This document shows, in pieces, positions 20,301-61,914 of a stretch of 64,000 nt of DNA. The position numbers and the translations under genes were made by a program. Position 1 is the first letter of the stretch. Every line of letters begins with the position of its first letter. Source of the stretch: a virus. The notes under the pieces are model-generated. The model saw only the letters and a list, made by a program, of their open reading frames with translations. It did no database searches and had not been told where the DNA came from. The stretch lies in the IMG/VR virus record IMGVR_UViG_3300037225_001468, positions 1 through 64,000 of that record; one strand, 5' to 3'.

Positions 20301-22070
20301 TCTTCTAATATAGATGTTGAGGTAAAGGGATATGTTCAGTTTTATTTTGCTAATAATTTATCTTTATCTAATATACAGGAAGACACTTTACACTCTCAGG
20401 TTTTATTTGATTCTAATAGAGTTACTACTATAAACGGAAGAGGAATAGTCACATTAAAACCTAGAGCAGATGATATAATTAAAAACATTATGTCTAATTT
20501 ATCTTTTGAAGAGGATAAGAAAAATTTAAGATATAAAATTATTATTCAATCTATTATATATGATAATATTTATTTTGGTAGGAATTTTATCCATATAGTT
20601 TCATTATTTGAAAATATATATAGTTATGGAGATAATGTATGTATAGATTCAAGCACTAATATAAATATTAAATCATTAAATAATTCTTTAGAAGATAATT
20701 CTAAATTTAGTTTAATATCTAATGTTTTATATCAAGAAAAATCTTCTTCTTTAGATTGTATAATATCAAGAGGTCATATTATTGAAATAGAAAATCTTAC
20801 AGAGCATGGGTCGGTTAGTGCTTCTGAGGGAATGTTATTAATTGATAGTGTTAAAGAAGAGGATCCTATAGGAGGATCTCCTTTGTCGGATTCTTTATTT
20901 GATGCTTCTAATGCTCTTTCTCTTGTTTCTTATGATAATATAAAGAAAAATATAGTATCATTTGTTGATAGCGAACCTAATTCTTCTGTGAATTCTCTTG
21001 ATTATATTATTTCCTATATTAATGGGATTGCGGGATATACGAAGGTCCCTGTTATCTGTTCTAATATGTCTGTAATTTCTCCATCTATACAACCTATACT
21101 TGAGAATGGTACCACAAATGTTTTTCTAAACAGAATAACAAAAGAGACAGGTGGACAATCTTTTACTGTTGTATCCAGTTCTTTTATTAATGATGCCATT
21201 GATTTATTGATAGGAAATATGCGTGGAACTTTAGGATACGGTTCTGCTATATATGTTGTTGACCTTTCTGAAATATCTGAAATAAATTGTGTAACAGTAT
21301 TTTTTAATTTATATTCAAACACTAATGGAAAATGGAATATTTCTGTAAGTGATGATAATTATACCTATTCTTCTGTAACGGATAAATTTAGTCCTAATTA
21401 TACAGCTTATTTCGATAAAATATTTGGTAGATATATTAAGTTTAACATGGAACTTTTTAGTGAGTTAAGTTCGTCAAACGAAGAAATTTTAGTTCCTGGA
21501 TCTCCGTCAATAACAGGAATATCTATATCTTACACACCGGAAAAGGTTGATTATTTATATATTAACAAGAAAAATATAGGATCAGAAGTTCAGCAGGTTG
21601 TTATTTCTACTAATTCTGATAATAGTTCTTATGGAGTTAATAGCATTAGAGTAGGGACTTCTACATATGACTCTCATAATTGGAGAGATTTCGATACTAT
21701 TTCTAAACCTTCAAAAAAAGAAAGTGGAAAAATTATTATTCCTGTAAGATACGGGACAGCAAGCGGAAACATAATAGAGCAATTAGTTTTTGTTGATGGA
21801 TTTATGTATAAAACTTTATATGGAGGGTGGGACCAGGAATCTATAGTTAATATATATGATAAAAATAATGTTCTCATAAATTATAGTGAATATAAAACAT
21901 ATCCAAGGGAGGGTATAGTTATTTTTAACGCAAAAAGATCGGACAATTGTAGAGTAGAAATTGTAAATCCAAAAGATTTAAGAATTGGACTAAAAATAAT
22001 TAATAAAACTACAAATCAATTCACCTATATTGATGGAGTAGGATATTTAAATAACACAAATCAATTTTAA
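14391..22070 (+). CDS. Giant virion protein: split vWA + LamG/ConA + FN3-like + Kelch repeats
   Basis: VVDNSGSM (MIDAS); WHFGEGNG, FTFMAW, EWHHLAIT, IYIDG (LamG); VYSIGG..VEEYNPITNVW, IYVFGG (Kelch); C-terminal GGSPL/FVDSEPN/ETGG vWA half. Confidence 0.75.
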   Translation: MSIAYAFFTLNGLKIYSLKEWEDIQLIPLSTDIETYNLFFYNAYYKKLNNNDNNIWHIYSNNLYFYNVYYKKLGDISNIWHESETGHSLIISSSYNSFDEYGDRIVIPPSSTESLVVNNFIPSVLTLNNTKVVNDEYGKEDIVLDFPDRVVNIVVDNSGSMTWNDESGLRYDLIKRFIERVSGYKNLGNDKNIWHTYSNNLLFYDVFYKKLGNDISGKYPGSVEYNIIKYGGKYISVLLSATTSDNNPLNPATNIQKIYEQDDFIDDASDFYGVRILRRKDMFSASPIDGEIIFDGIINKLSQTCLIENQTYYYSLYTYDKNYHFSNPTRISVVPRKNLIPKGVKTFYSEVLKGSGIITDNNVVSSWHFGEGNGDIVYDFTGYGDLVSQNYSSVRTQWLNKYEVPVGNSGIRYDSIPSLTIIQDKTIPYKAPFTFMAWFYPFDNSLTNQVIASNDNGVNYDWYVSLSAGNINFHTNNGSNIVSSIGYISQKEWHHLAITVASNGNTNIYIDGVLSNTGTSALSSFSLMSYPSYGNNFRTSIGSGFLGSLSFKGYITEVSIHNIERDVSYVLKYSKPSLVSDRDNGDRLIVLKYSIPNSFDYVGGKVRIVEKYSEVPSNEEDGEVIYDGDALSGDFYKTYKEELILDKTYNFRIFSQNSIGNYSHISDSVNLTVNIPNLSDEARQNLFPISEEIYFPHDLTIKEGNGKNYLKWKIHNLNDLSKRILIYFSTESFPSIEDNNFSGTLVFDGDIDDTGFVHRDLQNNQIYYYTIFSIDRYLRVSDSFRISGTPQSSFDDTGIPLVKINNLSYEIKDENTVNIFWDKLPNIRIVNAYFDQDIVLLAKLTDEFGNLIIKDVNVKLENNIESVIDLQSAEDVFIGENSFVPPNSQDIYNFVMSNMDSGISNGTLKLKLTSANNEFLLKNFKEIIINTKIKLFIPDTSSILDSNGNYTNNLFEYTSSEIKIVLTNPFNLEITNRDNRYINVVCKNSISALDNNVSTEVKKYSGAYVGSSQGFTVRCLMTYRGSPLIGVSSILTSAYTANKNLCDSSLPERGDISSFYNNLTGFSDTGSVQSEILDVNGNPTGEFETVTYSDILLNVPSTAQNILLYIKSSFGGMCFVKKMFLVFDSPLKIDMSVKVPLSDGMSISEQFANVYILDPNYPEDISKRSYPPDNTIVKWELTKLRSVFPDRLIYSTNNVPIVDGIYSYTNSGVTSGVFIGPISGVTTYDTESNIDSIYESDSLKATVLYNGISATDYQVIRILPQSVLGHASASSSFLMEFEDINNNLYTDGQSYIKMIISHDANTSNTKYSSCFRNCMNDKGKTIYELVPGQLVFINTNEPEIEIIWGNVIEDIDTYTGQKTIDITNATIGLGSAYVELSSGINTPVYFRINKNYQNQHSTGFIEKSTECKCIGNGQFINYYNEINVYGSITSIFNGSSIALTGGGDMTNGFPPTIIIPQEPVLIKVVDRKSGNISVKSLVVDGVSDNKIILDISFAGQPVPNGTPINLQIVNNFEEAISLVNSIIYTTNDIISDIDPINIRSYAVVDIEPIPTNVVFDSNLYITVNYDNLGNISRSNVLCIRFVYDAEYSINQSSTVFSSSVNSYDISTNSWTSVSSLKYERGYHCVQGVNNRVYSIGGINNKSIVNYVEEYNPITNVWTEKSSMPTSRMGALSVVVGNYIYVFGGIVYDSINNRVSVCNKTERYNTITNEWISLEDMPSIYLDTVDPVVYGNAYGAIVYNSGVIYILSGIRDISYDGLTVVNNDKVLSYTVATDSWSYSDTILDTEVENYGRIGPWYTFVSGNIFIGGGALQGLDQSLTYPTSIYKYDISTFSFDGAENVFSNIPISSYRTGISAITTPNIFYLAGGSNSSSQNISRFESVNVNSVSLLSSFTTKLSSMVSGKNGLGLGLYSLLGKDYILEVGGVESGRGNNFLKIYNLIRPNSLELNGKQHIEVEIQLLDEENNYPSSNIDVEVKGYVQFYFANNLSLSNIQEDTLHSQVLFDSNRVTTINGRGIVTLKPRADDIIKNIMSNLSFEEDKKNLRYKIIIQSIIYDNIYFGRNFIHIVSLFENIYSYGDNVCIDSSTNINIKSLNNSLEDNSKFSLISNVLYQEKSSSLDCIISRGHIIEIENLTEHGSVSASEGMLLIDSVKEEDPIGGSPLSDSLFDASNALSLVSYDNIKKNIVSFVDSEPNSSVNSLDYIISYINGIAGYTKVPVICSNMSVISPSIQPILENGTTNVFLNRITKETGGQSFTVVSSSFINDAIDLLIGNMRGTLGYGSAIYVVDLSEISEINCVTVFFNLYSNTNGKWNISVSDDNYTYSSVTDKFSPNYTAYFDKIFGRYIKFNMELFSELSSSNEEILVPGSPSITGISISYTPEKVDYLYINKKNIGSEVQQVVISTNSDNSSYGVNSIRVGTSTYDSHNWRDFDTISKPSKKESGKIIIPVRYGTASGNIIEQLVFVDGFMYKTLYGGWDQESIVNIYDKNNVLINYSEYKTYPREGIVIFNAKRSDNCRVEIVNPKDLRIGLKIINKTTNQFTYIDGVGYLNNTNQF
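14499..15037 (+). repeat. Dispersed ~25-aa coding repeat NIWHxYSNNLxFYxVxYKKL
   Basis: Tandem copies at about 14499-14635 and another copy at about 14940-15037. Confidence 0.8.
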
Positions 22071-30945: not shown

Positions 30946-31539
30946 ATGGAAAGCAATCATAGAGTTAATTGGCAAATTACTCATTCTAAAATAATGGTTA
31001 TTTCTGCCGAAGGGAGCAATTTGGGAGTTATGACTAAAGACCAGGCTATTAGTGAAGCGAAAAAACAAGGTCTTGATTTAGTTCAATTTTCTGGAGAGAA
31101 AAGTGATATTCCGGTTTGTAAAATGGTAGATTATGGCAAAATTAAATATCAAGAATCTAAAAAACAAAAGAAATCTCATATATTTTCAAATGATATAAAA
31201 GAAATGCGTATTGGATGTAATATTTCTCAACATGATTTAGAAATAAAAAATAGAAAAGTTATTGAATTTTTAAAAAATAAACATAAGGTAAATTATGTAT
31301 TATTTTTAAGAGCAAATGTTAATGGAAATAGAATATTTACTCATAAGGTTAACACTCCAGTAGAAGCTTCGGAAATGATGAGAAAAATGCTCGATACTTT
31401 TTCTGAAGTAGCAGAATGGTCTCCCATAAAACAATCTGGTGGTCCAGAGTTTTCAAAATGGTCTGTATCTACAACTTTAACGCCTAAGCATATAGTCCAT
31501 AAGGATAAAAACAGAGAAGAACAAGTCGTAGTTAAATAA
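30946..31539 (+). CDS. infC: Translation initiation factor IF-3
   Basis: RVNWQI, G.NLGVM...AI..A...GLDLV, PVCKMVDYGKIKY, KEMRIG.NI..HDL..K. Confidence 0.9.
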   Translation: MESNHRVNWQITHSKIMVISAEGSNLGVMTKDQAISEAKKQGLDLVQFSGEKSDIPVCKMVDYGKIKYQESKKQKKSHIFSNDIKEMRIGCNISQHDLEIKNRKVIEFLKNKHKVNYVLFLRANVNGNRIFTHKVNTPVEASEMMRKMLDTFSEVAEWSPIKQSGGPEFSKWSVSTTLTPKHIVHKDKNREEQVVVK

Positions 31540-31554: not shown

Positions 31555-33216
31555 ATGACAGAAGAAACATTGACGCCACAAAAAGAACACGAAAAAGCAT
31601 TAAAGCAAATGGGAACAGTTTCTTTTACTAGTGATTTGCTTTCACTTCTAAGAAGTAGAGCTCCACTTATCTATTTAACATGTAATGAAGAAAAGAGAAT
31701 GAAAATATACTTTAAACACTTGGCCGCCTCTGAGGGTTATAAGATATATATATGGGATTGTTTTCTTGGATTATTAGATTTGATGAGTGAAAAGAAGAGC
31801 AAGGGGATAACAGACGATCTGACTCAACCAACTGTTGTGCTTGATAAAATTATAGAACAAGCTCAACAGGATGAAGATAACGCTAAATCATTAAAGAGTG
31901 AAGGTATTAGAGGGACTATTTATATTCTTTTAGATTTTCATCGCTTTATGGAAGAAGCTGTTCCTGATTTGGAGAGAAGATTAAAAACATTTTCTAATAT
32001 TGAGTCTATGACTCATATTATTATGACTGGCCCATATTTGGTTACAACTCCAACGTTGGAAGATTCTATTTCTGTTTTAGATTTTCCTTATCCAAATAGT
32101 GATGAAATAAGTTGTGCATTAAATTCATTGGTTTCTGCCATAAAAAAGCAAGGAAAACTTCCTAATTTAGAAAAAGAGACAGAAGAGCATAAAGATGAGA
32201 TTATAAAGGCAGCAAATGGTTTAACTTTAAATGAAGCTCAGATGGCTTTTTCCAAATCTGTAGTTATGAATAAAACTTTTAGTATACCAGTTATCTTAAA
32301 AGAAAAACAACAAATCATAAGGAAGAAAGGCATATTAGAATTCTTTGAACCTAAAGTGTCTATGAAAGACATTGGAGGATTAAAGCATTTAGTAAATTGG
32401 TTAGAAAGAAGAAAACTATCTTTTCATTCTGATGCTAAAAAGTATGGATTGCCTTCTTTAAGAGGAATTATGCTCCTTGGTGGAGCGGGAACGGGAAAAA
32501 GTTTAACCTGTAAGGCTATAGCTGGTTTGTATCAACTACCATTGTTGAGATTAGATTTTGGAAAATTATTTGGATCACTAGTAGGACAGTCGGAAGCTAC
32601 AGTTAGAGATATGATACGTCTAGCTGAAAATATTTCACCTGCCGTTCTATGGATTGACGAGATCGAAAAAGGTCTTTCTGGATCAAGATCAAGCGGGCAA
32701 ACGGATGGGGGAACAACTAGTAGGGTTGTATCTACATTTTTAACTTGGTTACAGGAAAAAGAAGCTCCAGTTTTTGTTGTATGCACAGCAAATGATTATT
32801 CTACAATTCCTCCTGAATTTATGCGAGCAGGTCGTCTCGATGAAGTTTTTTTCGTCGATTTACCTACAAAGACTGAACGTAAAGATATATATAAAGTTTT
32901 ATTTAAAAAACACAATAGAGATCCGTTAAAGTTTGACATAGATTCTCTTGCTTCTGTTACTGAGAACTATAGTGGAGCAGAAATTGAAAAATCTATAGTT
33001 TCAGCTTTGTTTGAGGGATTTAGTGATAATAAAAGAGAAATTACAACAAAAGATGTCTCTATGGCAGTAAAATCTTTTAAGCCTTTATATGATATTAGAC
33101 AGGAAGAATTTGATGAAATGAGGGATTGGGCAAAGGGTAGATGTGTTATGGCAAATTCTGACGAAGAAGATGTATCAGCAACGAAGGAAAAGGAATATAA
33201 GAATTTAGATTTATGA
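31555..33216 (+). CDS. Ycf46/SpoVK-type AAA+ ATPase
   Basis: DIGGL..L..WL..R, GGAGTGKS, LPLLRLDFGKLFGSLVGQSE, WIDEIEK, PPEFMRAGRLDEVFFVDLP. Confidence 0.9.
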   Translation: MTEETLTPQKEHEKALKQMGTVSFTSDLLSLLRSRAPLIYLTCNEEKRMKIYFKHLAASEGYKIYIWDCFLGLLDLMSEKKSKGITDDLTQPTVVLDKIIEQAQQDEDNAKSLKSEGIRGTIYILLDFHRFMEEAVPDLERRLKTFSNIESMTHIIMTGPYLVTTPTLEDSISVLDFPYPNSDEISCALNSLVSAIKKQGKLPNLEKETEEHKDEIIKAANGLTLNEAQMAFSKSVVMNKTFSIPVILKEKQQIIRKKGILEFFEPKVSMKDIGGLKHLVNWLERRKLSFHSDAKKYGLPSLRGIMLLGGAGTGKSLTCKAIAGLYQLPLLRLDFGKLFGSLVGQSEATVRDMIRLAENISPAVLWIDEIEKGLSGSRSSGQTDGGTTSRVVSTFLTWLQEKEAPVFVVCTANDYSTIPPEFMRAGRLDEVFFVDLPTKTERKDIYKVLFKKHNRDPLKFDIDSLASVTENYSGAEIEKSIVSALFEGFSDNKREITTKDVSMAVKSFKPLYDIRQEEFDEMRDWAKGRCVMANSDEEDVSATKEKEYKNLDL

Positions 33217-34020: not shown

Positions 34021-35532
34021 ATGATTGATAGAAAACAAAAAATTAGTATTGAAAAAGAATTTATTAGTTTATTATTAAAATATAAAGATTTAGTTTCTGA
34101 ATGGAGAGAGACTGGCCCTGATAGGATTTTTTTTGATAATAATCATAAATACATATTAGAAGCGATTATAGAATCTTTTAATAACGATGTTCTTTTAACA
34201 AGAAAAACATTTGAAAGTTTTTTAGAGAAAAGAATATCCGTTAAAAGTGATATAGTTGCTCAAGGATATTTATATTTATCAACTAATTCTATTCCTGTTA
34301 AAAGAGATGATTTTCCAAATCTTAAAGATAAAATAACAGAAGCTTTTTTGTCAAAAAAAGCAATATCAGCTATAGAAGAATTTAGAGATATTTTTTCTAA
34401 AAAGGGAGCCGGCGTAGCTACTAAAAGTCTTTTAGAAAAATTAAAAAATTTAGTAGATGACACAAAAGAAACAAAACAGATATACTATGAATCAATAACT
34501 GATTATTCTGAAGAATATTACGAAAAACTTGTTGAAAAAAGAAATAGAGGGGCAGATGTTGACGTAATAAGATCTCATATTAAGGAAATAGATGAAGCTA
34601 TGGTTGTTGGTTTCGCTCCTGGAACATTAACTTTATTTTGTGGAGACGTTGGAGGATTCAAATCGGCCCAGATGTTAAATGTCGGATCAAATATTTGGCA
34701 GTTTTCTAAAAAGAATGTATTGTTTGTTCCCCTTGAAATGCCAAGGGAAAAAATGTTTCAAAAATTTGTTTCAAGATTTTTGAAGATACCATTTGATAGA
34801 ATAGAACATCCAACTCTTCTTACGGAAGATGAATTAAAAAAAATAGGAACTATAGGTAAATCTATTTTAGATATAGATATTAAAAATAATTCAAAGTTTT
34901 TTATAATGGAGGCTCCTGATCAAATTAAAGTATCAGTTATAAGGAGAGAAATAGAAAAACATATTGATATCTTTAAGCCTAATGTTGTTATAATAGATTA
35001 TATTGCCAATTTAGTGCCTGATGGTAATGATAGAAATGATCTAGAAATAGGATATATGTTAAAGGCTTTGAGGACAATGGGGAAACCTGGAGGAATGACT
35101 CATGATGGATTCGCTATTGTTTCTGGAGCTCAAATAGGAAGAGAAGCATTAAAAAGGATAAGAAGAAGCGCGGCTAATAAAATGGCTTTTTATTCTGAAG
35201 ATTTAAGGGGATCTCATGAATATTCTGCTGATGCTGATAATATTTTTGCACAAATGGAAGATCCTCAACAACCTCAAAGTCGGTTAAATATATATGTCAT
35301 TAAGGCTAGATATGGAAAGAAGATTTTCAATAACGGATCAATTAAAGCATCTTTAGAAGTAAAACCTGAAATAAGTTTAATTCAAAGTGTTAATGATTCT
35401 TTTTATAAAGTTAAGCATGAAGAGATAATGAACAAAATAAATAGTTCTAATGATTTGAATTTTGAAGAAAATAAGACTACAGAAAAATCTATTACTAATG
35501 ATGTTGAACTTGATAAAATACTAGGACTGTAA
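34021..35532 (+). CDS. dnaB: DnaB-like replicative helicase
   Basis: GDVGGFKS, VPLEM, IIDYI, AQ..R, DAD, KARYG. Start moved to ATG 34021. Confidence 0.85.
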   Translation: MIDRKQKISIEKEFISLLLKYKDLVSEWRETGPDRIFFDNNHKYILEAIIESFNNDVLLTRKTFESFLEKRISVKSDIVAQGYLYLSTNSIPVKRDDFPNLKDKITEAFLSKKAISAIEEFRDIFSKKGAGVATKSLLEKLKNLVDDTKETKQIYYESITDYSEEYYEKLVEKRNRGADVDVIRSHIKEIDEAMVVGFAPGTLTLFCGDVGGFKSAQMLNVGSNIWQFSKKNVLFVPLEMPREKMFQKFVSRFLKIPFDRIEHPTLLTEDELKKIGTIGKSILDIDIKNNSKFFIMEAPDQIKVSVIRREIEKHIDIFKPNVVIIDYIANLVPDGNDRNDLEIGYMLKALRTMGKPGGMTHDGFAIVSGAQIGREALKRIRRSAANKMAFYSEDLRGSHEYSADADNIFAQMEDPQQPQSRLNIYVIKARYGKKIFNNGSIKASLEVKPEISLIQSVNDSFYKVKHEEIMNKINSSNDLNFEENKTTEKSITNDVELDKILGL

Positions 35533-36200
35533 TGGCGGAAAAAATTAGTAAATTTGTTGTTGATACTATTTGTTCAAAATATTCTATTGAAGATTTTCTG
35601 TCTTCTATTGGTATAGAATTAAAATATAAATATGAAGACAAACTAATATATATATGTCCTTTACATAAAGATAGTAAACCTTCTTTTGTTGTATATACGA
35701 GTGGGGAGTTCCAAACTTATTATTGCTTTGGATGTCAATCTACTGGAAATATAATTTCATTATACTCTAAAGTAAAAAATATATCTTTTACGGAAACAAT
35801 AAATCAATTAGGTGGATATAATGTTTCTAATAAAGATGAAATAAATTTTATAGTTGATTATCTTAAAAAAAAAGAAGAAAATAGTAAAGACAAAAAAGAT
35901 AATGAAGATATATTTTCTAATATATCGTTAAACATAAGTAGAGTATGTTATGATTTTTTAATAAGAGTCAATTTTGATATAGAAGAACAAAATATTTTAG
36001 AAAAATTATATAAAAAAATAGATAATTATATTTTATTGGAGAACATAAAAGGTTTATTAGAATTATATTTTATTATTATTGGAGAAAATAAATATGATAA
36101 AAATATTTTAATGGAAAGAGAAAAGATATACGAAGACAGAAAGAATAAAATAGATACAGAATATGATGAAGTTTATAAAGAACTGGGTATAACATTATGA
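35532..36200 (+). CDS. Stand-alone primase CHC2 zinc-binding domain protein
   Basis: CPLHKDSKPSF.V...YYCFGC...GNII, followed by a helical region with no TOPRIM motif. Confidence 0.85.
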   Translation: MAEKISKFVVDTICSKYSIEDFLSSIGIELKYKYEDKLIYICPLHKDSKPSFVVYTSGEFQTYYCFGCQSTGNIISLYSKVKNISFTETINQLGGYNVSNKDEINFIVDYLKKKEENSKDKKDNEDIFSNISLNISRVCYDFLIRVNFDIEEQNILEKLYKKIDNYILLENIKGLLELYFIIIGENKYDKNILMEREKIYEDRKNKIDTEYDEVYKELGITL

Positions 36201-38466: not shown

Positions 38467-39250
38467 TGAATATCAACAAATAAATAACGATATAAATGCT
38501 AAATACAAACAAAATGCTCAATTATTAAAAGATAATATTGAGAAGATAAGTAAACGCAAAGATACTAAAACAATAGTTTATCCTGAATTAAAAGAAGCAT
38601 TTGACTTTGTTGATTCTGTTTTTCCTAAATCTAATGTTAAAGAAGTTAAAGTTCTTGTTTGTGATAGAAAATTTCTTGAAGATTTAGGATATAAGGGGAT
38701 TGGCGGATTTTTTGAAAGAGTTATGAAGACTGTTGTTATACCTGATAATTTAAATTTCTCTTCTAATAAAAAAACAGATAAAAAAACAGATATAAAAATA
38801 TGTGCTAAATTAACTACTGATGAAGTCCTCGTTCATGAACTTTTTCATTATGTTTCTGATACATTTAATAAAAAGATTAGTTCTATAGAAATGGAAGAAG
38901 AATTTGCTTATGGAAATTCTATAGCATATTTAAAGAAAAAAGGTTATTCTGAAGAACAAATTATAAATGATAAATTTATGCCGTTTTTATATAATTCTAT
39001 TGATAAAAATAAAATAGTTAAAAAAGTTTTAATAGATAAAGATTATGATATTAAAGAGTTTTCTACTAAATCTACCAAATATCAAAAAGATATTATAAAC
39101 AAATATAAAAAACAAATAATTGAAGAAACAAAAAAAGAAGCATTCAAAAAGGGTCAAGAAATAATAGAAATATATAAACCTTTTACTACTCAAGAAATAA
39201 AAATAGAAGACGGTTCAAAAAGATTTGATTTAATTGATTTTGGAGATTAA
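38423..39250 (+). CDS. HExxH zincin-like protein
   Basis: VLVHELFHY followed by EEEFAY; true start may be ATG 38456. Confidence 0.6.
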   Translation: MKDILQMIMKKMTFDEYQQINNDINAKYKQNAQLLKDNIEKISKRKDTKTIVYPELKEAFDFVDSVFPKSNVKEVKVLVCDRKFLEDLGYKGIGGFFERVMKTVVIPDNLNFSSNKKTDKKTDIKICAKLTTDEVLVHELFHYVSDTFNKKISSIEMEEEFAYGNSIAYLKKKGYSEEQIINDKFMPFLYNSIDKNKIVKKVLIDKDYDIKEFSTKSTKYQKDIINKYKKQIIEETKKEAFKKGQEIIEIYKPFTTQEIKIEDGSKRFDLIDFGD

Positions 39251-39987: not shown

Positions 39988-41400
39988 ATGAAGTTTAATA
40001 ATTGTGATTTTGTGCATACACATAGTCATACGGACTTCTCGCAATTTGACGGAATGTGTAATGTTAAAGAGTTTGCCCTAAAAGCAAGAGAGATGGGTTT
40101 TCCTGCTTTAGCGATTACTGATCATGGAAATATAGGTGGATGGATTAAGTTTATTAAAGAATGTTCTGCTACTAAAGATAAAAAAGATAATCCTATTCCT
40201 TTTAAGCCTATTAAACCCATTTTAGGCTGTGAATTTTATTTATGTCGTCATAGAGAGTATAAAAATAAAGAATTACAGCCAGATGGAAGAAAGGGTAATC
40301 GTCATTTAATTTTACACGCTAAGAACTGGAAGGGATATCAAAATCTTTGTTCATTATCTCAAGAGTCTTGGGTTGATGGATTTTATTCTAATCCAAGAAT
40401 AGATTTAGAGCTTCTTGAAAAATATCATGAAGGACTAATTTGTCAAACAGCATGTCTGTCAAGTATAGTTAATGCTAATCTTTTGGCTGGAAGATATGAT
40501 AAGGCAAAAAGAATATGTTCTATATTTAAGGATATGTTTAAGGAAGATCTGTTTTTAGAAGTTCAATATCATGGAATAGATTCTGAAAGAATAATAATTC
40601 CAGATATAATAAAACTTTCTAAAGAATTGAACCTATTAATGGTTTGCTCGAACGATTCTCACTATTTGGAAAAATCTCATGCCAAGTCTCATGAAGTATT
40701 ACTTTGTATGTCTTCGTCAAGATGCCTTAGTGATCCAAAGCATTTAAGTTTTCCGTATGATGAGTTTTATATGAAGAGTGCAGATGAAATGGGGAAAATG
40801 TTTGGAGATATTCCTCAATGTATTTATAACACTATTGCTTTGGCTGAGAGAATTAATTCTGATGATATAAATAAAAACCTATTTGGAGGCATGAGACTTC
40901 CCGATATTGATATCCCAAAAGAATTTGAAACAAATGTTAAATTTGAAGGGCAATACAATTATATTGTAAAATTAGCCCAAGACGGAATGAAAGCAAAAGG
41001 ATGGGATAAAAGTCAAAAACATATTGATCAATTAAATAAAGAACTAAATGATATTAGAGTTGCTTGGGAAAATAATGGTTATGACTTTGCTACTTATTTT
41101 CTTATAGAATATACTATTATCAATGAAGCAAAAAAGAGAGGGATATTAACGGGTCCGGGTCGTGGAAGTGGATTTGCTAGTGTTTTATTACACTGTTTGG
41201 GAATAGCTTATGGGTGCGATCCGATAAATTATGATTTAATTTGGGAAAGGTTCCTAGGTTTCGATCACAAAAAATTCATAAAAGAGTCTGACTTTGGATT
41301 TAAGGATGAGTCGTATGATATTGGTAATATACAAGATACTACAGAAGAAGAAAACGAAGAAATAAATCAGGTTCTTGAGGGAGATGAAGAAGAATTATGA
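39988..41400 (+). CDS. dnaE: DNA polymerase III alpha, N-terminal fragment (PHP domain + start of palm)
   Basis: HTHSHTDFSQFDG, ITDHG, GCEFY, SNDSHY, GPGRGS, DP..YDLIWERFL, then an acidic tail and a stop. Confidence 0.9.
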   Translation: MKFNNCDFVHTHSHTDFSQFDGMCNVKEFALKAREMGFPALAITDHGNIGGWIKFIKECSATKDKKDNPIPFKPIKPILGCEFYLCRHREYKNKELQPDGRKGNRHLILHAKNWKGYQNLCSLSQESWVDGFYSNPRIDLELLEKYHEGLICQTACLSSIVNANLLAGRYDKAKRICSIFKDMFKEDLFLEVQYHGIDSERIIIPDIIKLSKELNLLMVCSNDSHYLEKSHAKSHEVLLCMSSSRCLSDPKHLSFPYDEFYMKSADEMGKMFGDIPQCIYNTIALAERINSDDINKNLFGGMRLPDIDIPKEFETNVKFEGQYNYIVKLAQDGMKAKGWDKSQKHIDQLNKELNDIRVAWENNGYDFATYFLIEYTIINEAKKRGILTGPGRGSGFASVLLHCLGIAYGCDPINYDLIWERFLGFDHKKFIKESDFGFKDESYDIGNIQDTTEEENEEINQVLEGDEEEL

Positions 41401-41416
41401 AAACAGGAAATATTTA

Positions 41417-41995
41417 ATGGACAATAGTGGAACACAAACTGGAACGCCCTATGATATCAAAAAGAGTAGAATGATATATTTAAGTGGGGACGTAAACGAA
41501 GAACAGTCTAAATCTGTTATTAAGGATATTTTAGAACTTGAAGTTTCCAATCCTCAATCTGATATTGTTTTGTATATAGATTCTCCCGGGGGTTATGTAG
41601 ACAGTTTTATAGCCATGCACGATTTTATGAAATTGTGCAGATGTGATATAGCTACCGTGTGTATGGGTAGGGCGATGAGTTGCGGTATGCTTTTGTTGAT
41701 TAGCGGGACCAAAGGAAAAAGGTTTATAACTCCTAACTCAAGAGTTTTAGTTCATGCTATATCTTCATGGAGTGGTGGTAATGTTCACCAGTTAGATAAT
41801 GATATAAAAGAAACAAAAAGACTACAGGAACTATTAGAAGGACTGATAAAAAGATATACTAATATGTCTTCTAAAAAAATAAAAGAATTGATGTCTAAGG
41901 ATTCATATTTAGATGCTAATTCCGCATTGAATTTTGGAATTGTTGATCATATAATATACAAGTCTTCTGATCTGCATTCTCACATAAGGGTATAA
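41417..41995 (+). CDS. clpP: ATP-dependent Clp protease proteolytic subunit
   Basis: IYLSGDV, YIDSPGG, G.AMSCG (Ser), VLVH (His), KDSYLDA..AL.FGIVD (Asp). Start moved to ATG 41417. Confidence 0.92.
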   Translation: MDNSGTQTGTPYDIKKSRMIYLSGDVNEEQSKSVIKDILELEVSNPQSDIVLYIDSPGGYVDSFIAMHDFMKLCRCDIATVCMGRAMSCGMLLLISGTKGKRFITPNSRVLVHAISSWSGGNVHQLDNDIKETKRLQELLEGLIKRYTNMSSKKIKELMSKDSYLDANSALNFGIVDHIIYKSSDLHSHIRV

Positions 41996-41996
41996 T

Positions 41997-43976
41997 GTGG
42001 CAAAAAGTGATATAGAAATTAGAAACGAGTTATTATCTTTTGTAAAAATTAAGGATAGTAATGAGTTAAAAAAAATAGAACAGGAATTAGATATTCTGTC
42101 TATTACTGAAGGTTTGGATGAAAAAAGTAATCTTGAATCCTTTTACAATATTTGGGATAAAAGAAAAGGTCAAATTGGTAACGAAAATAAAATTAACAGT
42201 TGGCTTGCTTATCATTTAGGTTTAACGTTAGCTAAACCTAATGGGGAATTTTTGCCATTAAGAAGAGCTTTTGCTAGAGCAGGTTTTCCTGATATAGATA
42301 GTGATTTTGATTATTTTCATCGTCAAGAAATTTATGATTTTATTATAGAAAAATTTGGCAGAGAATATGTTGGTAATATTGGAACTTATAATGGATTAAA
42401 ATTAAAAGCCACTATTAGAAGATTAGGAAAAGCTTTAGATGTTGCTGGTTCTTTTTTTAAGGGATCTAAAGCTAATAAAACCGACAATGAAGAAAAGGTG
42501 ACAGAAATAGTAAAGTCATTACCTCCTCAAAGGGGAGCGGTTCTTAAAGTTAAAGATGAAGATGGTAATGATAGGGCTATAAAGACTGTTGAGGATGCCT
42601 ATAAATATTGTGGTGATTTTAGAAATTATATAGATAAATATCCTGGTATTAGAGAACACGCTAAGAAAATTGAGGGTTTAACATCTAATGTAGGATGTCA
42701 TGCTTCTGGGATTTTAATATCTAATGTCCCACTAAAACAGATAGCTCCATTAAAAAATATTAAAAAAGGATTAGTCACTCAGTTTCCTTATGAAGATTTA
42801 GAAAGCATCGGATTGATAAAATTTGATATTCTTGCCTTAAGCTCTTTGACTGTTATTCAAAAAACTATAGAAATGGTAAAACAAAATTATGGCATAACTA
42901 TTGATATTGCCAATTTGCCTCTTGATGATGAAAAAACATTTGAACTTTATAGAAGTGGAAATTTGGTTGGAGTGTTTCAGTGTGAAAACGGGGGAATGCA
43001 AAACACAATTCAAGAAATTGAGGCAAGCTGTTTTGATGATATTATGGCAGCGATTGCTTTGTATCGTCCTGGTCCAATGATATCTATTCCCGAGTATTGT
43101 GCAAGAAAGAAGGGGATAAATGAAGTAAATTATTTTCATCCATCAATAGAAAAATATGTAAAACCTTATTTAGAGAAAACATATGGTCTTATTGTATATC
43201 AAGAGCAAGTTATGCAGATATGTAATTCTCTTGCTGATTTTAGTATAACAGAAGGCTATGTTATGATTAAGGGTGTAGGTAAAAAGAAAGATTATTTAAT
43301 ACAAAAGTTTAAGAAGAGATTTTTAGAAGGAACAGCTAAGAAGGGTGTATTAAATTCTGTTTCTGAAGAATATTGGGATAAGTATATAACTCCATTTTCC
43401 AGCTACGGTTTTAATAAGTCACATTCCTGTTCTTACGGTTTATTGTCTTACTATAGTGCTTTTTTGAAGGCTAATTATACAGAAGAGTTTATGGTGTCAT
43501 TTTTGAATGTTGAAAATTATAGAAAAAAACACGACAAAATAGCAGTTTTAGAAAAAGACTTAAAGAGATTTGATATTTATCTTCATCCAAGAAACATTAA
43601 CACTTGTGGAGTTGATTACAAAATAATAAAGAAAAAAGATACTTTATCGGGTGTTGTTAGATCTGAGATAATGCCTTCTGTTATGTGTAAGGGTATGGGT
43701 CTAGATGCCGCTCAAGAGTTAGAAAAAAATGCTCCATATGAAGGATTAAGAGATATAGCTTTTAAGACTAATTCTAAATTATTTGATAATAGAGCCATGA
43801 CCTGTTTAATAGAAGCTGGATTTTTTGATAATGAGTTTAAGGAATATAAAAAAGCTAATAAGGGTGTAAAAAAAGAAGAATTTCAAGAAATAATTCTTAA
43901 AAAATTTACTTCACTAAGAGAAGATTCTAAGGCTTCTAAAAAATTAGGATTAGGAACTGAATCGCTTTTTGATTAA
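41997..43976 (+). CDS. dnaE: DNA polymerase III alpha, C-terminal fragment (catalytic palm, thumb, fingers, HhH)
   Basis: PDIDSDF, HASG, KFDILAL, GVFQ, ALYRPGP, TYG.IVYQEQ.M, YGFNKSH; GTG start. Confidence 0.92.
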   Translation: MAKSDIEIRNELLSFVKIKDSNELKKIEQELDILSITEGLDEKSNLESFYNIWDKRKGQIGNENKINSWLAYHLGLTLAKPNGEFLPLRRAFARAGFPDIDSDFDYFHRQEIYDFIIEKFGREYVGNIGTYNGLKLKATIRRLGKALDVAGSFFKGSKANKTDNEEKVTEIVKSLPPQRGAVLKVKDEDGNDRAIKTVEDAYKYCGDFRNYIDKYPGIREHAKKIEGLTSNVGCHASGILISNVPLKQIAPLKNIKKGLVTQFPYEDLESIGLIKFDILALSSLTVIQKTIEMVKQNYGITIDIANLPLDDEKTFELYRSGNLVGVFQCENGGMQNTIQEIEASCFDDIMAAIALYRPGPMISIPEYCARKKGINEVNYFHPSIEKYVKPYLEKTYGLIVYQEQVMQICNSLADFSITEGYVMIKGVGKKKDYLIQKFKKRFLEGTAKKGVLNSVSEEYWDKYITPFSSYGFNKSHSCSYGLLSYYSAFLKANYTEEFMVSFLNVENYRKKHDKIAVLEKDLKRFDIYLHPRNINTCGVDYKIIKKKDTLSGVVRSEIMPSVMCKGMGLDAAQELEKNAPYEGLRDIAFKTNSKLFDNRAMTCLIEAGFFDNEFKEYKKANKGVKKEEFQEIILKKFTSLREDSKASKKLGLGTESLFD

Positions 43977-46205: not shown

Positions 46206-47423
46206 ATGACAAAAGATAAGAAAAAAGAACCTAAAAAAGATATAGTTTTAGAGAACTTAAAGGGGTTTGTTCGTCTTGGAGCTTCTTCTGAGATATCGGG
46301 AAATGTTCCTACAGGGCATTTTGATTTAGACTTTGTTATTCATCATGGAACGTTGCCTTCTAATGTAGACCTGTCAACATTAAAAGATTATGATCCTTCT
46401 AAGTCTCTTGGTTTGCCATTAGGTAAATTGGTAGAGATATTTGGAGAGGAAGGTGGAGGAAAATCATCTCTTGCTTATAGGATAGTAGGATATGCTCAGA
46501 AAATGGGTTTTAAGTGTGCGTGGATTGATACAGAACATAGTTTTTCTGATAGTCTATCTTACATAAATGGTGCAAGAAAAGAAGATATTTATTATGCTAA
46601 CATGTCAAATTCTGAGAATGTTGATACCGTTTTTTTTGCGGAAGATGTTTTTGATGCTATTGTTAATTTAATAAAGAGTGAGGTTAAAGTTATAGTTCTG
46701 GATTCAGTTGCTAATCTTGTCCCTCAAGCTAGATTTGAAAAAGAAGCAGGACAAGCCACTGTAGGTATTGTTGCTAAATTGATGTCTGAAAACTTAGGAA
46801 AAATAGTTAATTATGCTGCTAAATATGGAGCATTGGTAATATTCATAAATCAGTTGAGAGAAAAGATTGGTGTATTTTTTGGATCTCCTGAAACTACTCC
46901 TGGTGGTCGAAGTTTGAAACATAATGCTTCCGTGAGATTACAGGTATCAAAAAAGAACAGTAAAGAAGCCGACATTTTCAGAGAAGATGAAGGTGGAAAA
47001 CAGGTTCTTATTGGGCGAAAGGCCAGGATTAATGTTAAAAAGAATAGATTTGCTAAGCCATTTTTTGAAGGAATAGAAGTTCCAATTTATTATGAACCAT
47101 ATTTTCCTGATATTGAAGAAATGATGTTTGATACAGGTAGGCAGTTAAAAATTATTAGTGTTTATAAGGGAGTGTTTAAGTGGGAAGGAGTGGAAGAAGA
47201 AGGACGTAAATCTTTTGTTAAAAAATTAAAAGAAGAAAAATTACAAAATAAATTATTTTTTGATTTACAAAAACAAGCTTTAGAAGATGGTTTGTTTTTA
47301 GCTCCAGAACTTTCTCAGTGGGCCGAAGAAAATTATAATCCAGAAGATATACAAGAGGCAGCAAAGCAGATAGATGAAGGAGTAAATAATGAGAAACCAA
47401 CAGATGAGGGACAAACTGAATGA
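46206..47423 (+). CDS. recA: RecA/UvsX recombinase
   Basis: GLPLGKLVEIFGEEGGGKS, IDTEH, LDSVA, FINQLREKIG.FFGSPETTPGG.SLK, VKKNR. Confidence 0.95.
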   Translation: MTKDKKKEPKKDIVLENLKGFVRLGASSEISGNVPTGHFDLDFVIHHGTLPSNVDLSTLKDYDPSKSLGLPLGKLVEIFGEEGGGKSSLAYRIVGYAQKMGFKCAWIDTEHSFSDSLSYINGARKEDIYYANMSNSENVDTVFFAEDVFDAIVNLIKSEVKVIVLDSVANLVPQARFEKEAGQATVGIVAKLMSENLGKIVNYAAKYGALVIFINQLREKIGVFFGSPETTPGGRSLKHNASVRLQVSKKNSKEADIFREDEGGKQVLIGRKARINVKKNRFAKPFFEGIEVPIYYEPYFPDIEEMMFDTGRQLKIISVYKGVFKWEGVEEEGRKSFVKKLKEEKLQNKLFFDLQKQALEDGLFLAPELSQWAEENYNPEDIQEAAKQIDEGVNNEKPTDEGQTE

Positions 47424-48168
47424 TGCTGAAAGGGTGAAAATAGTTGAAAATGCTAAATTAGAAATAAAAAATCATAAAGATGTTGTAGAATATCTGAAAT
47501 CTAATAAAAGACATTTTACTGATGAAGGTATAGATTTTATAGTAAAAGAGTTTTCTGTAGGATATATGCCAGAAGGCGTATATAATTTATATGGAGATTT
47601 TCACGAATTTTCTGGAAGAATAATTTTACCCATATATGATCAGTATAATGAATTGATCGCATTATCTTCAAGAGATTGGAGAGAAAATGCTTATATGAAG
47701 TTTTTTCATGAGAGTTTTCCTAAAACTCGTTATTTATATGGATTAAATGTAGCAAAAGAAAGTATCATAAAAAACAAAAGAGCTATTTTGGTAGAAGGTG
47801 AATTTGATGTTCAATATCTACATTATAGAGGAATTAAAGAAACAGCAGGCATTATGAGTAGTAATTTACATCTATATCAAATATCTTTATTGTGTAGGTA
47901 TTGTAAAGATATATATATAGTTTTTGATGGAGATAATTCTGGCAAAAAGTCTAAAGATAAAATTGTAAATAAAAGTATTTCTATGAAGATGTTTTCTATG
48001 TATGATATCAATATTATTCCTGTTATATTGCCAGACAAAATGGATCCTGATGATTTTGTTTTTAACAATGGAGTAAAAGAGTTTAATAATTTATTAGAAA
48101 AATCGAAGAAAGATTTTGACGAGGGTTCGGACGAAAGAATTAAAGAAGAAATATTATATAAGGTGTAA
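47389..48168 (+). CDS. dnaG: DnaG primase catalytic core (TOPRIM) without zinc finger
   Basis: EYL..R, VGYMP, GRIILPI, YLYGLN, LVEGEFDV, FDGD.SG, DPDD. Confidence 0.88.
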   Translation: MRNQQMRDKLNDAERVKIVENAKLEIKNHKDVVEYLKSNKRHFTDEGIDFIVKEFSVGYMPEGVYNLYGDFHEFSGRIILPIYDQYNELIALSSRDWRENAYMKFFHESFPKTRYLYGLNVAKESIIKNKRAILVEGEFDVQYLHYRGIKETAGIMSSNLHLYQISLLCRYCKDIYIVFDGDNSGKKSKDKIVNKSISMKMFSMYDINIIPVILPDKMDPDDFVFNNGVKEFNNLLEKSKKDFDEGSDERIKEEILYKV

Positions 48169-60062: not shown

Positions 60063-60881
60063 ATGAATATGAAAAAGTTTAATAAAAGTAAAAAGTGGCT
60101 AGAAAAAGAATATTGTATTAAAAGAAATAAACTTGAGGATATCGCTGAAAAAATAGGAGTAGATAGAACAACTATTTTTAATTGGACAAAAACATTTGGT
60201 CTTAAAAGACAAAAAATAGTTCCAGAAGTGGCAAATAGTAGAAAATATTCTGTAAATGAAGAATACTTTAATAAAATAGATACTGAAGAAAAAGCTTATT
60301 GGTTAGGATTTATTGCGGCAGATGGATGTGTTCAGTGTAGAAAAAGTAAAACTCTTCTTTCTGTAGAATTAGCAAAAAAGGATGAAGATCACTTGATAAA
60401 ACTAAAAAACGCTATAGAATATACCGGTCCTCTTCATCAGAGAAAGGCAAAAAACGGCAAGGGATCAAGCTGTTGCTTACAGGTATCAAGTATGAAAATG
60501 GTTCCTGATTTAATGAGACACGGAATAGTTGAAAGAAAATCTAAAATCTTACAACCTCCCTTTATGATAAATAAAGAGTTTTATAGACATTGGATTAGGG
60601 GATTTTTTGATGGAGATGGGTCCATAAGTTTATGTAAAGATGGTAGAATTAAAGGTGAATTCTTTTCAGGGTCAAAAAATATTATTGAGTTTATAGTTAA
60701 AGAATTTTTCCCGTTAAATATTTTTTTGACATTAGATATTTATACGTCAAAAAATTGTCTTGGATTTCATAAAAGTTTTTCTGGAAAATATAGAATAAAT
60801 CAACTACATAAGACAATGTATGATAATGCAACTGTTTATTTAGATAGAAAAAAGAAAATATTTGAACAAAATGTTATTTAA
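60063..60881 (+). mobile_element. Free-standing double-motif LAGLIDADG homing endonuclease with N-terminal HTH
   Basis: IAEKIGVDRTTI..W (HTH); AYWLGFIAADG and HWIRGFFDGDG; YL.RK near the end. Confidence 0.9.
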
Positions 60882-61308: not shown

Positions 61309-61914
61309 ATGCCAAAAACAAAAGATCAAAAAAGAAATACATTAAAAAGGGCAAAAGACTTTCAAAAAAGGCACTATTTTAATGAACTAAAAAATAGTAT
61401 TTTAACTTTTAATAATCCTATTTTATCTCAGGTGTCACAAGATGTGGCAAAAGAAGATAATTTAGATTTTATTGAAAAAATGAAAAAGGTATTATTTGTT
61501 AGTGAGAAAGGGGTGGGTTTAGCTGCTCCGCAGATAGGTGTATTAAAGAAAGTTATTGTTTTAGACCCGAAAAAAGAAAATAAAATTAAAGTAATGATAA
61601 ATCCAAGAATAACAGAAATATCTCAAGAGACCAATAATGTTTCTGAAGGATGTTTATCTTATCCTGATATTTATGTTCCAGTTGATAGAGCGAATAAAAT
61701 TAAAGTAGAATATTTTACTACTTTATTTGAGAAGAAAGAAGAAGAGTTTATTGGGTTTGAAGCAAGAATAATTCAGCATGAAGTTGATCACTTGATAGGG
61801 GTTTGCTTGGTAGGGGAAGTGTGGAAAGAAAGTAAAGAAAAAGGTTTGCCAGTAGAAGAAATAATTAGAATAAGAAAAGAAGAAATAGAAAAAGCCGAAT
61901 TAAGTATGAAATAA
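61309..61914 (+). CDS. def: Peptide deformylase
   Basis: GVGLAAPQIG, INP, EGCLS, QHEVDHL.G. Confidence 0.95.
   Translation: MPKTKDQKRNTLKRAKDFQKRHYFNELKNSILTFNNPILSQVSQDVAKEDNLDFIEKMKKVLFVSEKGVGLAAPQIGVLKKVIVLDPKKENKIKVMINPRITEISQETNNVSEGCLSYPDIYVPVDRANKIKVEYFTTLFEKKEEEFIGFEARIIQHEVDHLIGVCLVGEVWKESKEKGLPVEEIIRIRKEEIEKAELSMK

Follow-up and report, generated by a model that had tools for sequence, protein, structure and literature searches.

Genes divided into two pieces are described in several phages. In Aeromonas phage Aeh1, the genes-in-pieces NrdA-a and NrdA-b (Crona et al. 2010, PMC3045599; Friedrich et al. 2007, as cited in PMC2988022) encode an essential replication-related enzyme that is interrupted close to the active site by another gene; function depends on the new tails at the C- and N-termini, and neither RNA nor protein splicing is involved. 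The intervening gene there encodes the homing endonuclease responsible for the break, and the tails stem from that insertion. A replicative DNA polymerase is likewise encoded by two genes in the T4-related Aeromonas phages 25 and 44RR, in which gp43A and gp43B co-purify and are active, and the intervening sequence varies among relatives (Edgell et al. 2010, PMC2988022). Group 2.2 jumbo phages possess a split minimal Pol III alpha, whose NTP-binding and Mg/DNA-binding parts are separated (Iyer et al. 2021, PMC7824862). Finally, three DnaE loci in phage-like environmental DNA are fractured genes in two pieces with a gene between them, namely a free-standing homing endonuclease, and their split inteins possess every splicing residue (Dassa et al. 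2009, PMC2677866); the cyanobacterial DnaE is also made in two pieces, with a split intein.

The locus considered here lies in the window, i.e. the whole stretch of 64,000 nucleotides that was analysed (positions 1 to 64,000 of IMG/VR record IMGVR_UViG_3300037225_001468). The source is a huge uncultured phage, represented by a 117-kb record that is a metagenomic fragment (23% complete). A bacterial-type DnaE is encoded there by two ORFs, with a clpP-family gene in the gap between them:

39,988 to 41,400, + strand: dnaE-N gene, ORF of 470 aa from an ATG
40,015 to 40,572, + strand: PHP domain (PF02811), aa 10–195
41,158 to 41,169, + strand: GRGS loop, canonical NTP-binding motif, aa 391–394, aligned to its counterpart in Taq Pol III alpha
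41,245 to 41,256, + strand: ERFL, aa 420–423, last canonical motif ahead of the break
41,257 to 41,301, + strand: proximal tail GFDHKKFIKESDFGF, aa 424–438 (first 15 tail residues), putative vestigial catalytic-Asp strand
41,302 to 41,397, + strand: acidic distal tail, aa 439–470, outside the predicted interface
41,417 to 41,995, + strand: clpP-family serine protease gene, ORF of 192 aa
41,678 to 41,680, 41,753 to 41,755 and 41,900 to 41,902, + strand: clpP triad Ser88, His113 and Asp162, read directly
41,997 to 43,976, + strand: dnaE-C gene, ORF of 659 aa with a GTG start
41,997 to 42,173, + strand: helical part of the leader, aa 1–59
42,174 to 42,239, + strand: degenerate second GS loop and helix GNENKINSWLAYHLGLTLAKP, aa 60–81
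42,288 to 42,308, + strand: PDIDSDF with two catalytic aspartates, aa 98–104, aligned to Taq PDIDTDF
42,825 to 42,827, + strand: D277 in KFD, third catalytic Asp position, aligned to Taq KMD
42,846 to 43,346, + strand: finger domain (PF17657, 3.3e-51), aa 284–450
43,581 to 43,832, + strand: helix-hairpin-helix (HhH) domain, aa 529–612, a weak match (PF14579, 1.6e-4, 22.2 bits, below the cut-off of 25.6)

On sequence grounds, this split DnaE probably belongs with the phage genes-in-pieces, the gene being contiguous in relatives and here consisting of two ORFs with foreign DNA between them. It differs from Aeh1 NrdA in that the cut falls in an apparently older, duplication-like insertion, the cargo is variable and non-endonuclease, and the split is clade-wide instead of belonging to one phage. 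The gp43A/gp43B pair is of family B rather than C, is cut at another site and occurs in few phages only. The group 2.2 modules are without PHP, lie in distant genes and coexist with a family B polymerase, whereas the present enzyme has the full PHP–palm–thumb–fingers–HhH series, its halves are adjacent or nearly so and it is the sole DnaE copy of five complete relatives, in four of which no family A or B polymerase was found. A minimal split of the group 2.2 type was accordingly rejected (PHP, fingers and HhH present; halves adjoining or almost so; family B profile PF00136 in 0/5 records), as was a split-intein fractured gene (no Hint blocks, a tail starting with Gly, no endonuclease in the gap).

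All positions that a first-pass annotation had assigned to the three genes, to ERFL and to PD agree with the ORFs and with direct reading. Both halves match DnaE profiles, and the break lies between ERFL and PDxD as proposed. The N-half matches the PHP profile (5.7e-45), PF07733 positions 2–100 and positions 3–390 of 1151 of NCBIfam model NF005298, and carries palm helices besides the PHP domain. The C-half matches PF07733 positions 69–260, PF17657 and, weakly, HHH_6, the latter in a region whose alignment to Taq extends to residue 945; the half as a whole was aligned to Taq 425–945 and E. coli 363–890. Its NCBIfam matches end at about position 883–897 of models of 1146–1170, short of the OB-fold and tau-binding C-terminal region, and Pfam gave no match to the OB fold PF01336. 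No variation was seen among 19 N-halves at H12, H14, D21, H46, H106, C156, D223 and H225, and almost none at E82, a set which we take to be the PHP metal-binding residues; GRGS (19/19) and R421, F422 and L423 of ERFL are invariant as well. In the C-halves, P98, D99, D101, D103 and F104, together with K275, F276 and D277, are invariant in 17/17; D99, D101 and D277 presumably fill the catalytic aspartate roles, with D277 as the third. The order of domains and motifs is identical to that of single-chain DnaE (Taq 2HPI/3E0D, E. coli 2HNH/5FKU, M. tuberculosis 7PU7). Judged by these features (PHP, GRGS palm, aspartates, fingers and HhH), the two genes together appear to encode a DnaE-type polymerase, which departs from the single-chain enzymes in being two chains rather than one polypeptide, in its extra insertion of approximately 120 aa and in having no OB-fold/tau-binding region.

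As the record is an incomplete metagenomic fragment, the arrangement might be an artefact of misassembly, or a broken gene heading for loss. Contigs from four other runs match positions 40,900–42,500 with 0 differences, joints or loose ends, and they bridge the N/clpP junction (X4, 40,969–41,800; X6, 41,327–41,519; X8, 41,364–41,514; X5, to 41,446). No contig from these four runs bridges the clpP/C junction by at least 31 letters; this junction is nevertheless supported, because the identical N/clpP/C order is found in independent contigs. Decay is hardly compatible with the strong conservation of both dnaE halves. The artefact or decay reading is thus already largely refuted, and we give it a vanishingly small probability.

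ERFL and PDxD are separated by a clade-specific insertion, and it is here, immediately ahead of the catalytic aspartates, that the break lies. The tail after ERFL measures 47 aa, with Gly as its first residue, and the leader before PD 97 residues; the first-pass annotation had given about 48 and 90 aa and had described the tail as unrelated, whereas the first 15 tail residues and leader residues approximately 60–97 align to canonical DnaE. Indeed, a canonical DnaE segment of about 50 residues is covered by both halves (N aa 366–444 corresponding to Taq 398–474, C aa 63–611 to Taq 425–945), and the overlap is also seen in their profile ranges in Pfam and NCBIfam. In the N-half, the true GRGS loop is accompanied by a seemingly vestigial Asp strand; in the C-half, the true PDIDSDF is preceded by a seemingly vestigial loop and helix. 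The proximal tail was aligned by phmmer with the NPER..PDIDTDF stretch of Taq; within it, F425 and D435 never vary among the 19 N-halves, and F436 and G437 hardly do. The degenerate loop aligned to Taq 425–445, no longer has the Arg of GRGS or its first Gly-Ser, and retains invariant G61, N64, N67, S68, A71, T77 and P81 in 17 C-halves, in which the helical leader is also conserved (E30 invariant, L46 and F49 nearly so). With PDxD removed, 12 of 13 leaders align in register to the bacterial GRGSGAGS..AY..GIT...P (z 2.8–8.2), and in 31 of the 78 pairings of a leader with a reference the observed score was higher than that of every one of 300 shuffles. The duplicate copies were not detected directly: hhalign of the N alignment against the C alignment returned a spurious match only, 0/14 within-protein copy comparisons beat shuffles, and 0/8 leaders alone matched PF07733. 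The most likely origin of the insertion is an internal duplication of the active-site palm segment; on a tree with little resolution in its deep part, the order of events would be insertion, then fission, then deletion.

The split is widespread. A search for relatives of the N-half retained 2564 proteins at E ≤ 1e-10 among 7999 scored, and the best 120 stand-alone ones measure 430–489 aa, with one exception of 732 aa that has a LAGLIDADG domain; over 100 stand-alone proteins in this size range share 51–65% identity with dnaE-N, and the relatives lie on contigs of up to 502 kb. Among related viral loci, 24/28 are split at the identical point, so the break is not peculiar to one phage. Five complete relatives (G001–G005; 460–548 kb, 98–100% complete) each contain just two PF07733 matches, one for the N part and one for the C part, and no family A or B polymerase was found in G001–G004 and G000. 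The split enzyme, as the sole DnaE copy of these five relatives, is predicted to be essential, and both halves appear to be under purifying selection throughout the clade. In single-ORF relatives (L025, L026, L032 and L033 among the single-ORF loci), the gap from ERFL to PDxD is of 7 aa (n = 1), 16–18 aa (n = 7), 52–57 aa (n = 2) or 117–127 aa (n = 12), so that the inserts seem to form a graded series. The model of one such protein, P0128 (pLDDT 91.9, pTM 0.86), resembles Pol III alpha structures (TM 0.67–0.73). Its residues 431–450, where split forms are cut, are the model's least confident stretch (pLDDT 62–76), a linker to which the distal tail of dnaE-N corresponds, and are followed by three helices (444–456, 462–477 and 486–497); the insert is modelled as helical and not as a Hint fold.

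Could the halves be joined after transcription or translation into a canonical single chain, by an intron, a split intein or another ligation, as had been thought conceivable? The near-canonical spacing (16–18 aa) of some single-ORF relatives is in keeping with joining, as is another lineage of approximately 125–165-kb phages and prophages (L078, L084 and L085), whose DnaE is likewise interrupted between the ERFL equivalent and PDIDID. That interruption is, however, an RNA-spliced group I intron with a LAGLIDADG ORF (RF00028, 58.5 bits), whereas the 64-kb window has no Rfam match and no detectable intron. Neither dnaE half has a Hint or intein domain in Pfam, as the first-pass annotation had stated; this negative is meaningful because inteins are readily detected in relatives. 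The tail begins with Gly, and the joined forms are ordinary single-ORF genes of other lineages. Moreover, tail and leader are conserved as protein and would therefore be translated and retained. Joining thus appears extremely improbable.

A polymerase gated by ClpP had also been proposed, in which the co-transcribed protease, at least in its sub-clade, would trim or degrade the tails and so control assembly or activity. The genes are tightly packed (16 nt between dnaE-N and clpP, 1 nt from the clpP stop to the GTG of dnaE-C), no terminator-like site was found between them, the N/clpP/C order is kept in at least 10 contigs over approximately 40–50% protein divergence, and the tail in the window is without the C-terminal GGVDRY motif of most relatives. 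The product matches PF00574 (1.6e-47) and has the Ser/His/Asp triad; its NCBIfam scores are below cut-off (159 bits versus 249 for NF001368, 131.5 versus 308.6 for TIGR00493), its matches begin at model position 25–30 and thus leave out the N-terminal axial region, and it scores 65.7 bits with a ClpP-related head-maturation protease model. Ser88 and His113 are invariant in 24 ClpP relatives, but Asp162 is Asn in L023, P0266 and P0268. Against gating, the GGVDRY end is kept in five distinct tails of clpP-bearing loci and lost in three including the window, which gives no consistent link; 50/60 non-redundant loci with a ClpP at least 45% identical do not adjoin a dnaE half (10/60 do), and other related clpP genes sit among glycosyltransferase or vWA genes. 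No ClpX/ClpA-type unfoldase match (PF07724) was found in the 117-kb record, itself 23% complete. PF00574 is absent from the five complete relatives although their dnaE is split, and the gap, from 0 to approximately 3 kb, is elsewhere empty or filled with varied cargo: D12 (Dam) methylases at six loci, methylases of the N6/N4 and SAM kinds, a dCMP deaminase, many small ORFs and, in L023, which is the sister of the window in the tree (97/93), again ClpP. Of the 54 gap ORFs scanned, 14 have a Pfam match, and none of the 54 is a homing endonuclease. Synteny therefore upholds the split but not the ClpP link, an outcome that the first-pass annotation had foreseen as telling against ClpP alone; gating is very unlikely, and clpP appears to be the cargo of one sub-clade among many unrelated genes.

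These results lead us to favour, with good confidence, a non-covalent two-chain DnaE with a composite active site, clpP being cargo. The heterodimeric C-family polymerase first suggested from the letters fits a DnaE that is split clade-wide, under selection and the sole copy in five complete relatives, with the conserved part of the tail and the leader located in the predicted interface. In three runs (N 1–470 with C 1–525), the predicted complex scored 0.85, against 0.00 for the best control; this mark was reached by 116/157 solved complexes and 2/215 mismatched pairs, counts that are rough because our own alignments were used. Contact agreement was at least 86% and partner pLDDT at least 84. 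The predicted interface (N 386–397 and 420–438; C 37–66 and 86–105) takes in the GRGS loop, the proximal tail and residues 97–105 around PDIDSDF, with D435/F436 of N contacting K65 of C. Since structures of single-chain DnaE have been solved, this outcome may reflect likeness to them.

It might also be that the C-chain is a polymerase by itself, using its degenerate loop GxxNxINS, with the N-chain docking as a PHP proofreading subunit outside the active site. The C-half might bind nucleotide alone, since N64, N67 and S68 of its second loop/helix copy are invariant, and minimal Pol III alpha modules are described for other jumbo phages (Iyer et al. 2021, PMC7824862). Yet it is the C copy that lacks the Arg and first Gly-Ser, GRGS never varies in the N-halves, these also keep palm helices beyond the PHP domain, and N residues 386–397 belong to the predicted interface; we regard the C-chain acting alone as unlikely.

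With a two-chain enzyme, the replicative DnaE would consist of two separately made polypeptides held together non-covalently. The N-chain would bring the PHP domain and the loop, GRGS, that binds the nucleotide, while thumb, fingers, HhH domain and catalytic aspartates would come from the C-chain. As the cut would fall in a clade-specific insertion derived from an internal palm duplication around the active site, each chain would bear a degenerate copy of the other's intact part, and these vestigial pieces and the helical leader are predicted to pack together as a clasp. The intergenic space would then have come to tolerate the arrival of accessory genes, where clpP would be inherited by a sub-clade and co-transcribed with the halves without being needed for the polymerase.

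Within that sub-clade, there is a slim chance that the protease is functionally tied to the polymerase, for instance by removing unassembled or excess chains via their exposed acidic tails, a link kept in view because the arrangement stays intact in these contigs despite their divergence; if true, a ClpP protease would set the stoichiometry of a split replicase. In any case, a split bacterial-type DnaE is not one phage's oddity, since related phages in very large number share it.

The polymerase locus of the window consists of three consecutive genes on one strand:

39988–41400, same strand as clpP and dnaE-C: dnaE-N, 470 aa
41417–41995, same strand as both dnaE halves: clpP, 192 aa
41997–43976, same strand as dnaE-N and clpP: dnaE-C, 659 aa, with a GTG start 1 base past the clpP stop

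ORF and Pfam analyses confirmed every coordinate of the split DnaE described in the first-pass annotation. The dnaE-N product contains a PHP domain (5.7e-45) and positions 2–100 of the Pol III alpha palm model, the dnaE-C product contains positions 69–260 of this model together with the finger domain (3.3e-51) and, weakly matched, an HhH domain, and the protein between them is a Clp protease (1.6e-47). As the annotation had also reported, neither half displays an intein domain (Pfam). Likewise, no Rfam match at gathering score, hence no intron match, was obtained within the window, and these two results speak against the idea that the two products might be ligated. No terminator-like sites were found in the window (GC approx. 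29%), and its 35 promoter-like sites represent no excess over chance (28.8 +/- 5.8 expected).

The assembly at 40900–42500 is sound, misassembly having been checked against contigs from four other sequencing runs, which match this segment fully (0 differences, joints or loose ends) and bridge the N/clpP junction. No contig of these same four runs bridges the clpP/C junction by at least 31 letters, and this junction is accepted because independent contigs show the same gene order. The runs containing the segment are labelled peat, freshwater and pond metagenomes (the four aligned runs are all peat), with no RNA run among the 19 listed, and marine sets are also among the sources of the clade relatives. 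The viral record itself (117,741 bp, the window being its first 64 kb) is estimated to be 23% complete, and is therefore a fragment of a phage of about half a megabase.

This split is shared across a large clade. In a protein search limited to proteins of similar length, 2564 of the 7999 scored proteins were related to the N-half at E<=1e-10; the best 120 of these 2564, located on contigs of up to 502 kb, are 51–99% identical and 430–489 aa long, with a single exception of 732 aa that carries a LAGLIDADG domain. Among viral contigs, the close clade comprises 32 loci, of which 28 were examined, the four excluded being L011 and L036, truncated at the end of their contigs, and L022 and L027, which have match coordinates and scores identical to those of L021 and L026, respectively. 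The break point proved to be conserved, as DnaE is split at the same point in 24 of these 28 loci and is a single ORF in four. L001 (MT835501), a bacterial-type intact DnaE, was kept solely as a reference sequence. In each of five complete relatives (98–100% complete, 460–548 kb), the palm model has exactly two matches, one per half, and neither family A nor family B polymerases were detected in the four that were searched (G001–G004). Therefore, the two-gene enzyme is the only recognisable replicase of these complete relatives, and it must work.

The distance between the ERFL and PDxD motifs is 7 residues in canonical DnaE (L001 and the protein P0172). Single-ORF members of the phage clade fall into a short class of 16–18 residues (seven proteins, plus loci L032 and L033), a middle class of 52–57 residues (two proteins) and a long class of 117–127 residues (12 proteins, plus loci L025 and L026); split forms are equivalent to the long class with a cut in the middle of the insert. 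Past ERFL, the N protein has the conserved stretch GFDxKxFIKExDFGF, after which its tail is acidic. The C protein starts with a leader of approximately 60 helical residues, followed by GxxNxINSWxAYxLGxTxxxPxGxF and RRAFARAGF, before reaching PDIDSDF. On Taq Pol III alpha, the canonical single-chain reference, phmmer aligned N residues 366–444 to 398–474, placing ESDFGF of the tail on the catalytic-Asp strand, and C residues 63–611 to 425–945, placing NSWLAYHLGLT of the leader on the helix after GRGS. Of 13 leaders taken without the PDxD motif, 12 still aligned in register with the loop and helix of bacterial DnaE. Each chain thus holds an intact and a degenerate copy of an approximately 50-residue element, as would be expected had a segment been duplicated internally and then undergone complementary decay and fission. 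The second copy is visible only by comparison with canonical DnaE. Indeed, hhalign of the N-half against the C-half alignment gave only a spurious match (probability 0.25%), PF07733 was found in none of eight leaders searched alone (Pfam), and Smith–Waterman comparison of copy 1 with copy 2 rose above shuffles in none of 14 proteins or pairs (the L035 leader being mis-cut). As copy-against-copy comparison shows nothing, the duplication is an event that we infer.

In a 56-row tree rooted on bacterial DnaE, the first phage branch is made up of single-ORF forms bearing the insertion, single-ORF forms with the long insert are interspersed with split ones, and those of the 16–18-aa class nest deep within split lineages. 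At least eight changes between the split and single-ORF states are needed, and the monophyly of all split forms, a group named after the tree was seen, is rejected (p-AU 2e-77); fission, re-fusion, deletion or recombination has therefore occurred repeatedly at the junction. The order of events was not resolvable in a 30-row tree.

The predicted structure of a single-ORF relative, P0128 (pLDDT 91.9, pTM 0.86), resembles those of Pol III alpha (TM 0.67–0.73). Its confidence is lowest at residues 431–450 (pLDDT 62–76), precisely at the cut site of the split forms; next come three helices, and after them a short helix and strand that run into the aspartates. When the N chain of the window was predicted in complex with C-chain residues 1–525, the score was 0.85 in three runs versus 0.00 for the best control, with a contact agreement of at least 86% and a partner pLDDT of at least 84. 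Of 157 solved complexes, 116 scored this high, as did 2 of 215 mismatches; these counts are only rough because our own alignments were supplied. The predicted interface involves the GRGS loop (386–397) and ERFL with the proximal tail (420–438) on the N side, and the leader (37–66, 71–79) and aspartate motif (86–105) on the C side; N residues D435 and F436 would contact K65 in the vestigial loop of the C chain, and the distal acidic tail lies outside. Because single-chain DnaE structures are solved, this pass may come from likeness to them. Taken with the clade-wide split and the sole replicase of the complete relatives, the predicted interface leaves the heterodimeric two-chain DnaE, as first proposed in the annotation, well supported.

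Most split N-halves (L007–L038) have an acidic stretch and, as their last residues, (D/E)DxGGVDRY, an end that the N tail of the window does not have. It terminates 21 ORFs, including an unrelated 110-aa cargo ORF of one locus (L010:7566–7898); no DNA repeat was found behind this second GGVDRY-ending ORF of L010, so the motif looks like a portable C-terminal docking peptide. Many small ORFs near dnaE, gap cargo included, end with R-F-(D/E)-I-L-D-(L/I)-stop (33 ORFs in L007, L008, L010 and L013, and also the window ORF ending at 39250); their variation at synonymous sites marks this as a peptide motif rather than a DNA element. C-halves end with a short conserved motif (43965–43976 in the window; SLFD, DLFS or DLFG, for example) in which a Phe close to the end (F658) is invariant; this motif might bind a clamp or another partner. 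Further in-frame insertions, many of them containing intein or LAGLIDADG domains, were observed in N-halves (L021, L024, L030, L034, L175) and C-halves (L008, L013, L023, L028, L030, L033, L038), at N residues ~81, ~223 and ~390 and C residues ~246 and ~476; intein-bearing N-halves of 830–920 aa number about 30.

The two halves lie anywhere from a few bases (L012, L024, L028, L031) to approximately 3 kb apart. The gap contains D12 adenine methylases in six loci, as well as N6/N4 methylases, a SAM methylase, a dCMP deaminase, a zinc-finger protein and numerous small ORFs of unknown type; Pfam matched 14 of the 54 gap ORFs scanned, none of them an endonuclease. ClpP occupies the gap in L023, the sister of the window (97/93), and is absent from the five complete relatives. 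Close relatives of this ClpP were retrieved from viral contigs with a 24-row alignment, and none with a single protein or a two-row alignment. Among 60 non-redundant loci encoding a ClpP with at least 45% identity to that of the window, a dnaE half adjoins clpP at ten, all within the 19 closest (one being a 434-kb contig with an intein in the N gene and a second small cargo gene before clpP); at the remaining loci the neighbours are glycosyltransferase, vWA or unknown genes. At loci with clpP, five distinct N-tail sequences retain the GGVDRY end and three, including that of the window, have lost it. No ClpX-type ATPase was detected in the 117-kb record, itself 23% complete. Ser88 and His113 of the window's ClpP are kept in all 24 aligned relatives, and Asn replaces the catalytic Asp (KNSY for KDSY), with Ser and His kept, in L023:6456–7100, P0266 and P0268; the protein falls under the NCBIfam ClpP cut-offs and is without the first 25–30 model positions. 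ClpP is cargo. With gap contents absent or varied, most ClpP loci not adjoining dnaE, no ClpX-type ATPase in the 117-kb record and a mixed GGVDRY state, a dedicated protease–polymerase link, and thereby the proposed gating of the polymerase by ClpP, is thus unsupported, although such a link may, with low probability, exist in the window's sub-clade. ClpP itself is of ordinary interest.

Elsewhere in the window, the DnaG primase likewise appears, from its domains, to be carried by two genes 11 kb apart, one encoding a 222-aa protein with only a CHC2 zinc ribbon (35532–36197; 3.2e-16) and the other a 259-aa protein comprising the catalytic core of DnaG and its Toprim domain (47389–48165); the same core gene follows recA in locus L002. 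Homologues of translation initiation factor IF-3 (30946–31536; IF3_N 6.2e-24) and peptide deformylase (61309–61911; 7.2e-42), a classical AAA ATPase of 553 aa (31555–33213) and a 272-aa ORF with LAGLIDADG endonuclease domains (60063–60881; 7.7e-10) are also present. Two giant ORFs, of 1860 aa with an fn3 domain (7393–12975) and of 2559 aa with laminin-G-like and Kelch repeats (14391–22070), probably have structural or adhesion roles.

In textbook accounts, C-family polymerases are single-chain enzymes. The closest precedents for the split are non-spliced genes-in-pieces of phages: NrdA-a/NrdA-b of Aeh1, in which the new tails are essential (PMC3045599), and the split phage polymerases gp43A/gp43B (PMC2988022). 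Iyer et al. present a minimal Pol III alpha of other jumbo phages with separate NTP-binding and Mg-binding parts; that module is without PHP, its genes are distant and a family B polymerase is found alongside (PMC7824862). DnaE fractured by split inteins with endonucleases is reported by Dassa et al. (PMC2677866). In a more distant phage/prophage lineage (L078:6386–7656, also L084 and L085), the same site instead carries a group I intron (RF00028, 58.5 bits) with a LAGLIDADG ORF, exactly between the ERFL-equivalent and PDIDID of DnaE, so this conserved site attracts interruptions. Another phage DnaE (L003:5995–10801, 30% identical) is split at a different place, into a 333-aa PHP protein and, after two small ORFs, a 990-aa protein with a complete palm. 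In the literature outside subscription journals, we found no account of a full-length, intein-free, overlapping DnaE split between ERFL and PDxD in huge phages.

A large natural clade relies for its replication, without splicing, on a DnaE interrupted a few residues ahead of the catalytic aspartates. Should the composite site be confirmed, it would allow the cooperation between the nucleotide-binding loop of Pol III alpha and its metal-binding strand to be studied in a natural system, would provide a split point for engineering that needs no intein, and would be a clear case of gene fission via duplication and complementary degeneration. The space between the two genes, in turn, shows how accessory genes of huge phages come to settle within an essential operon.
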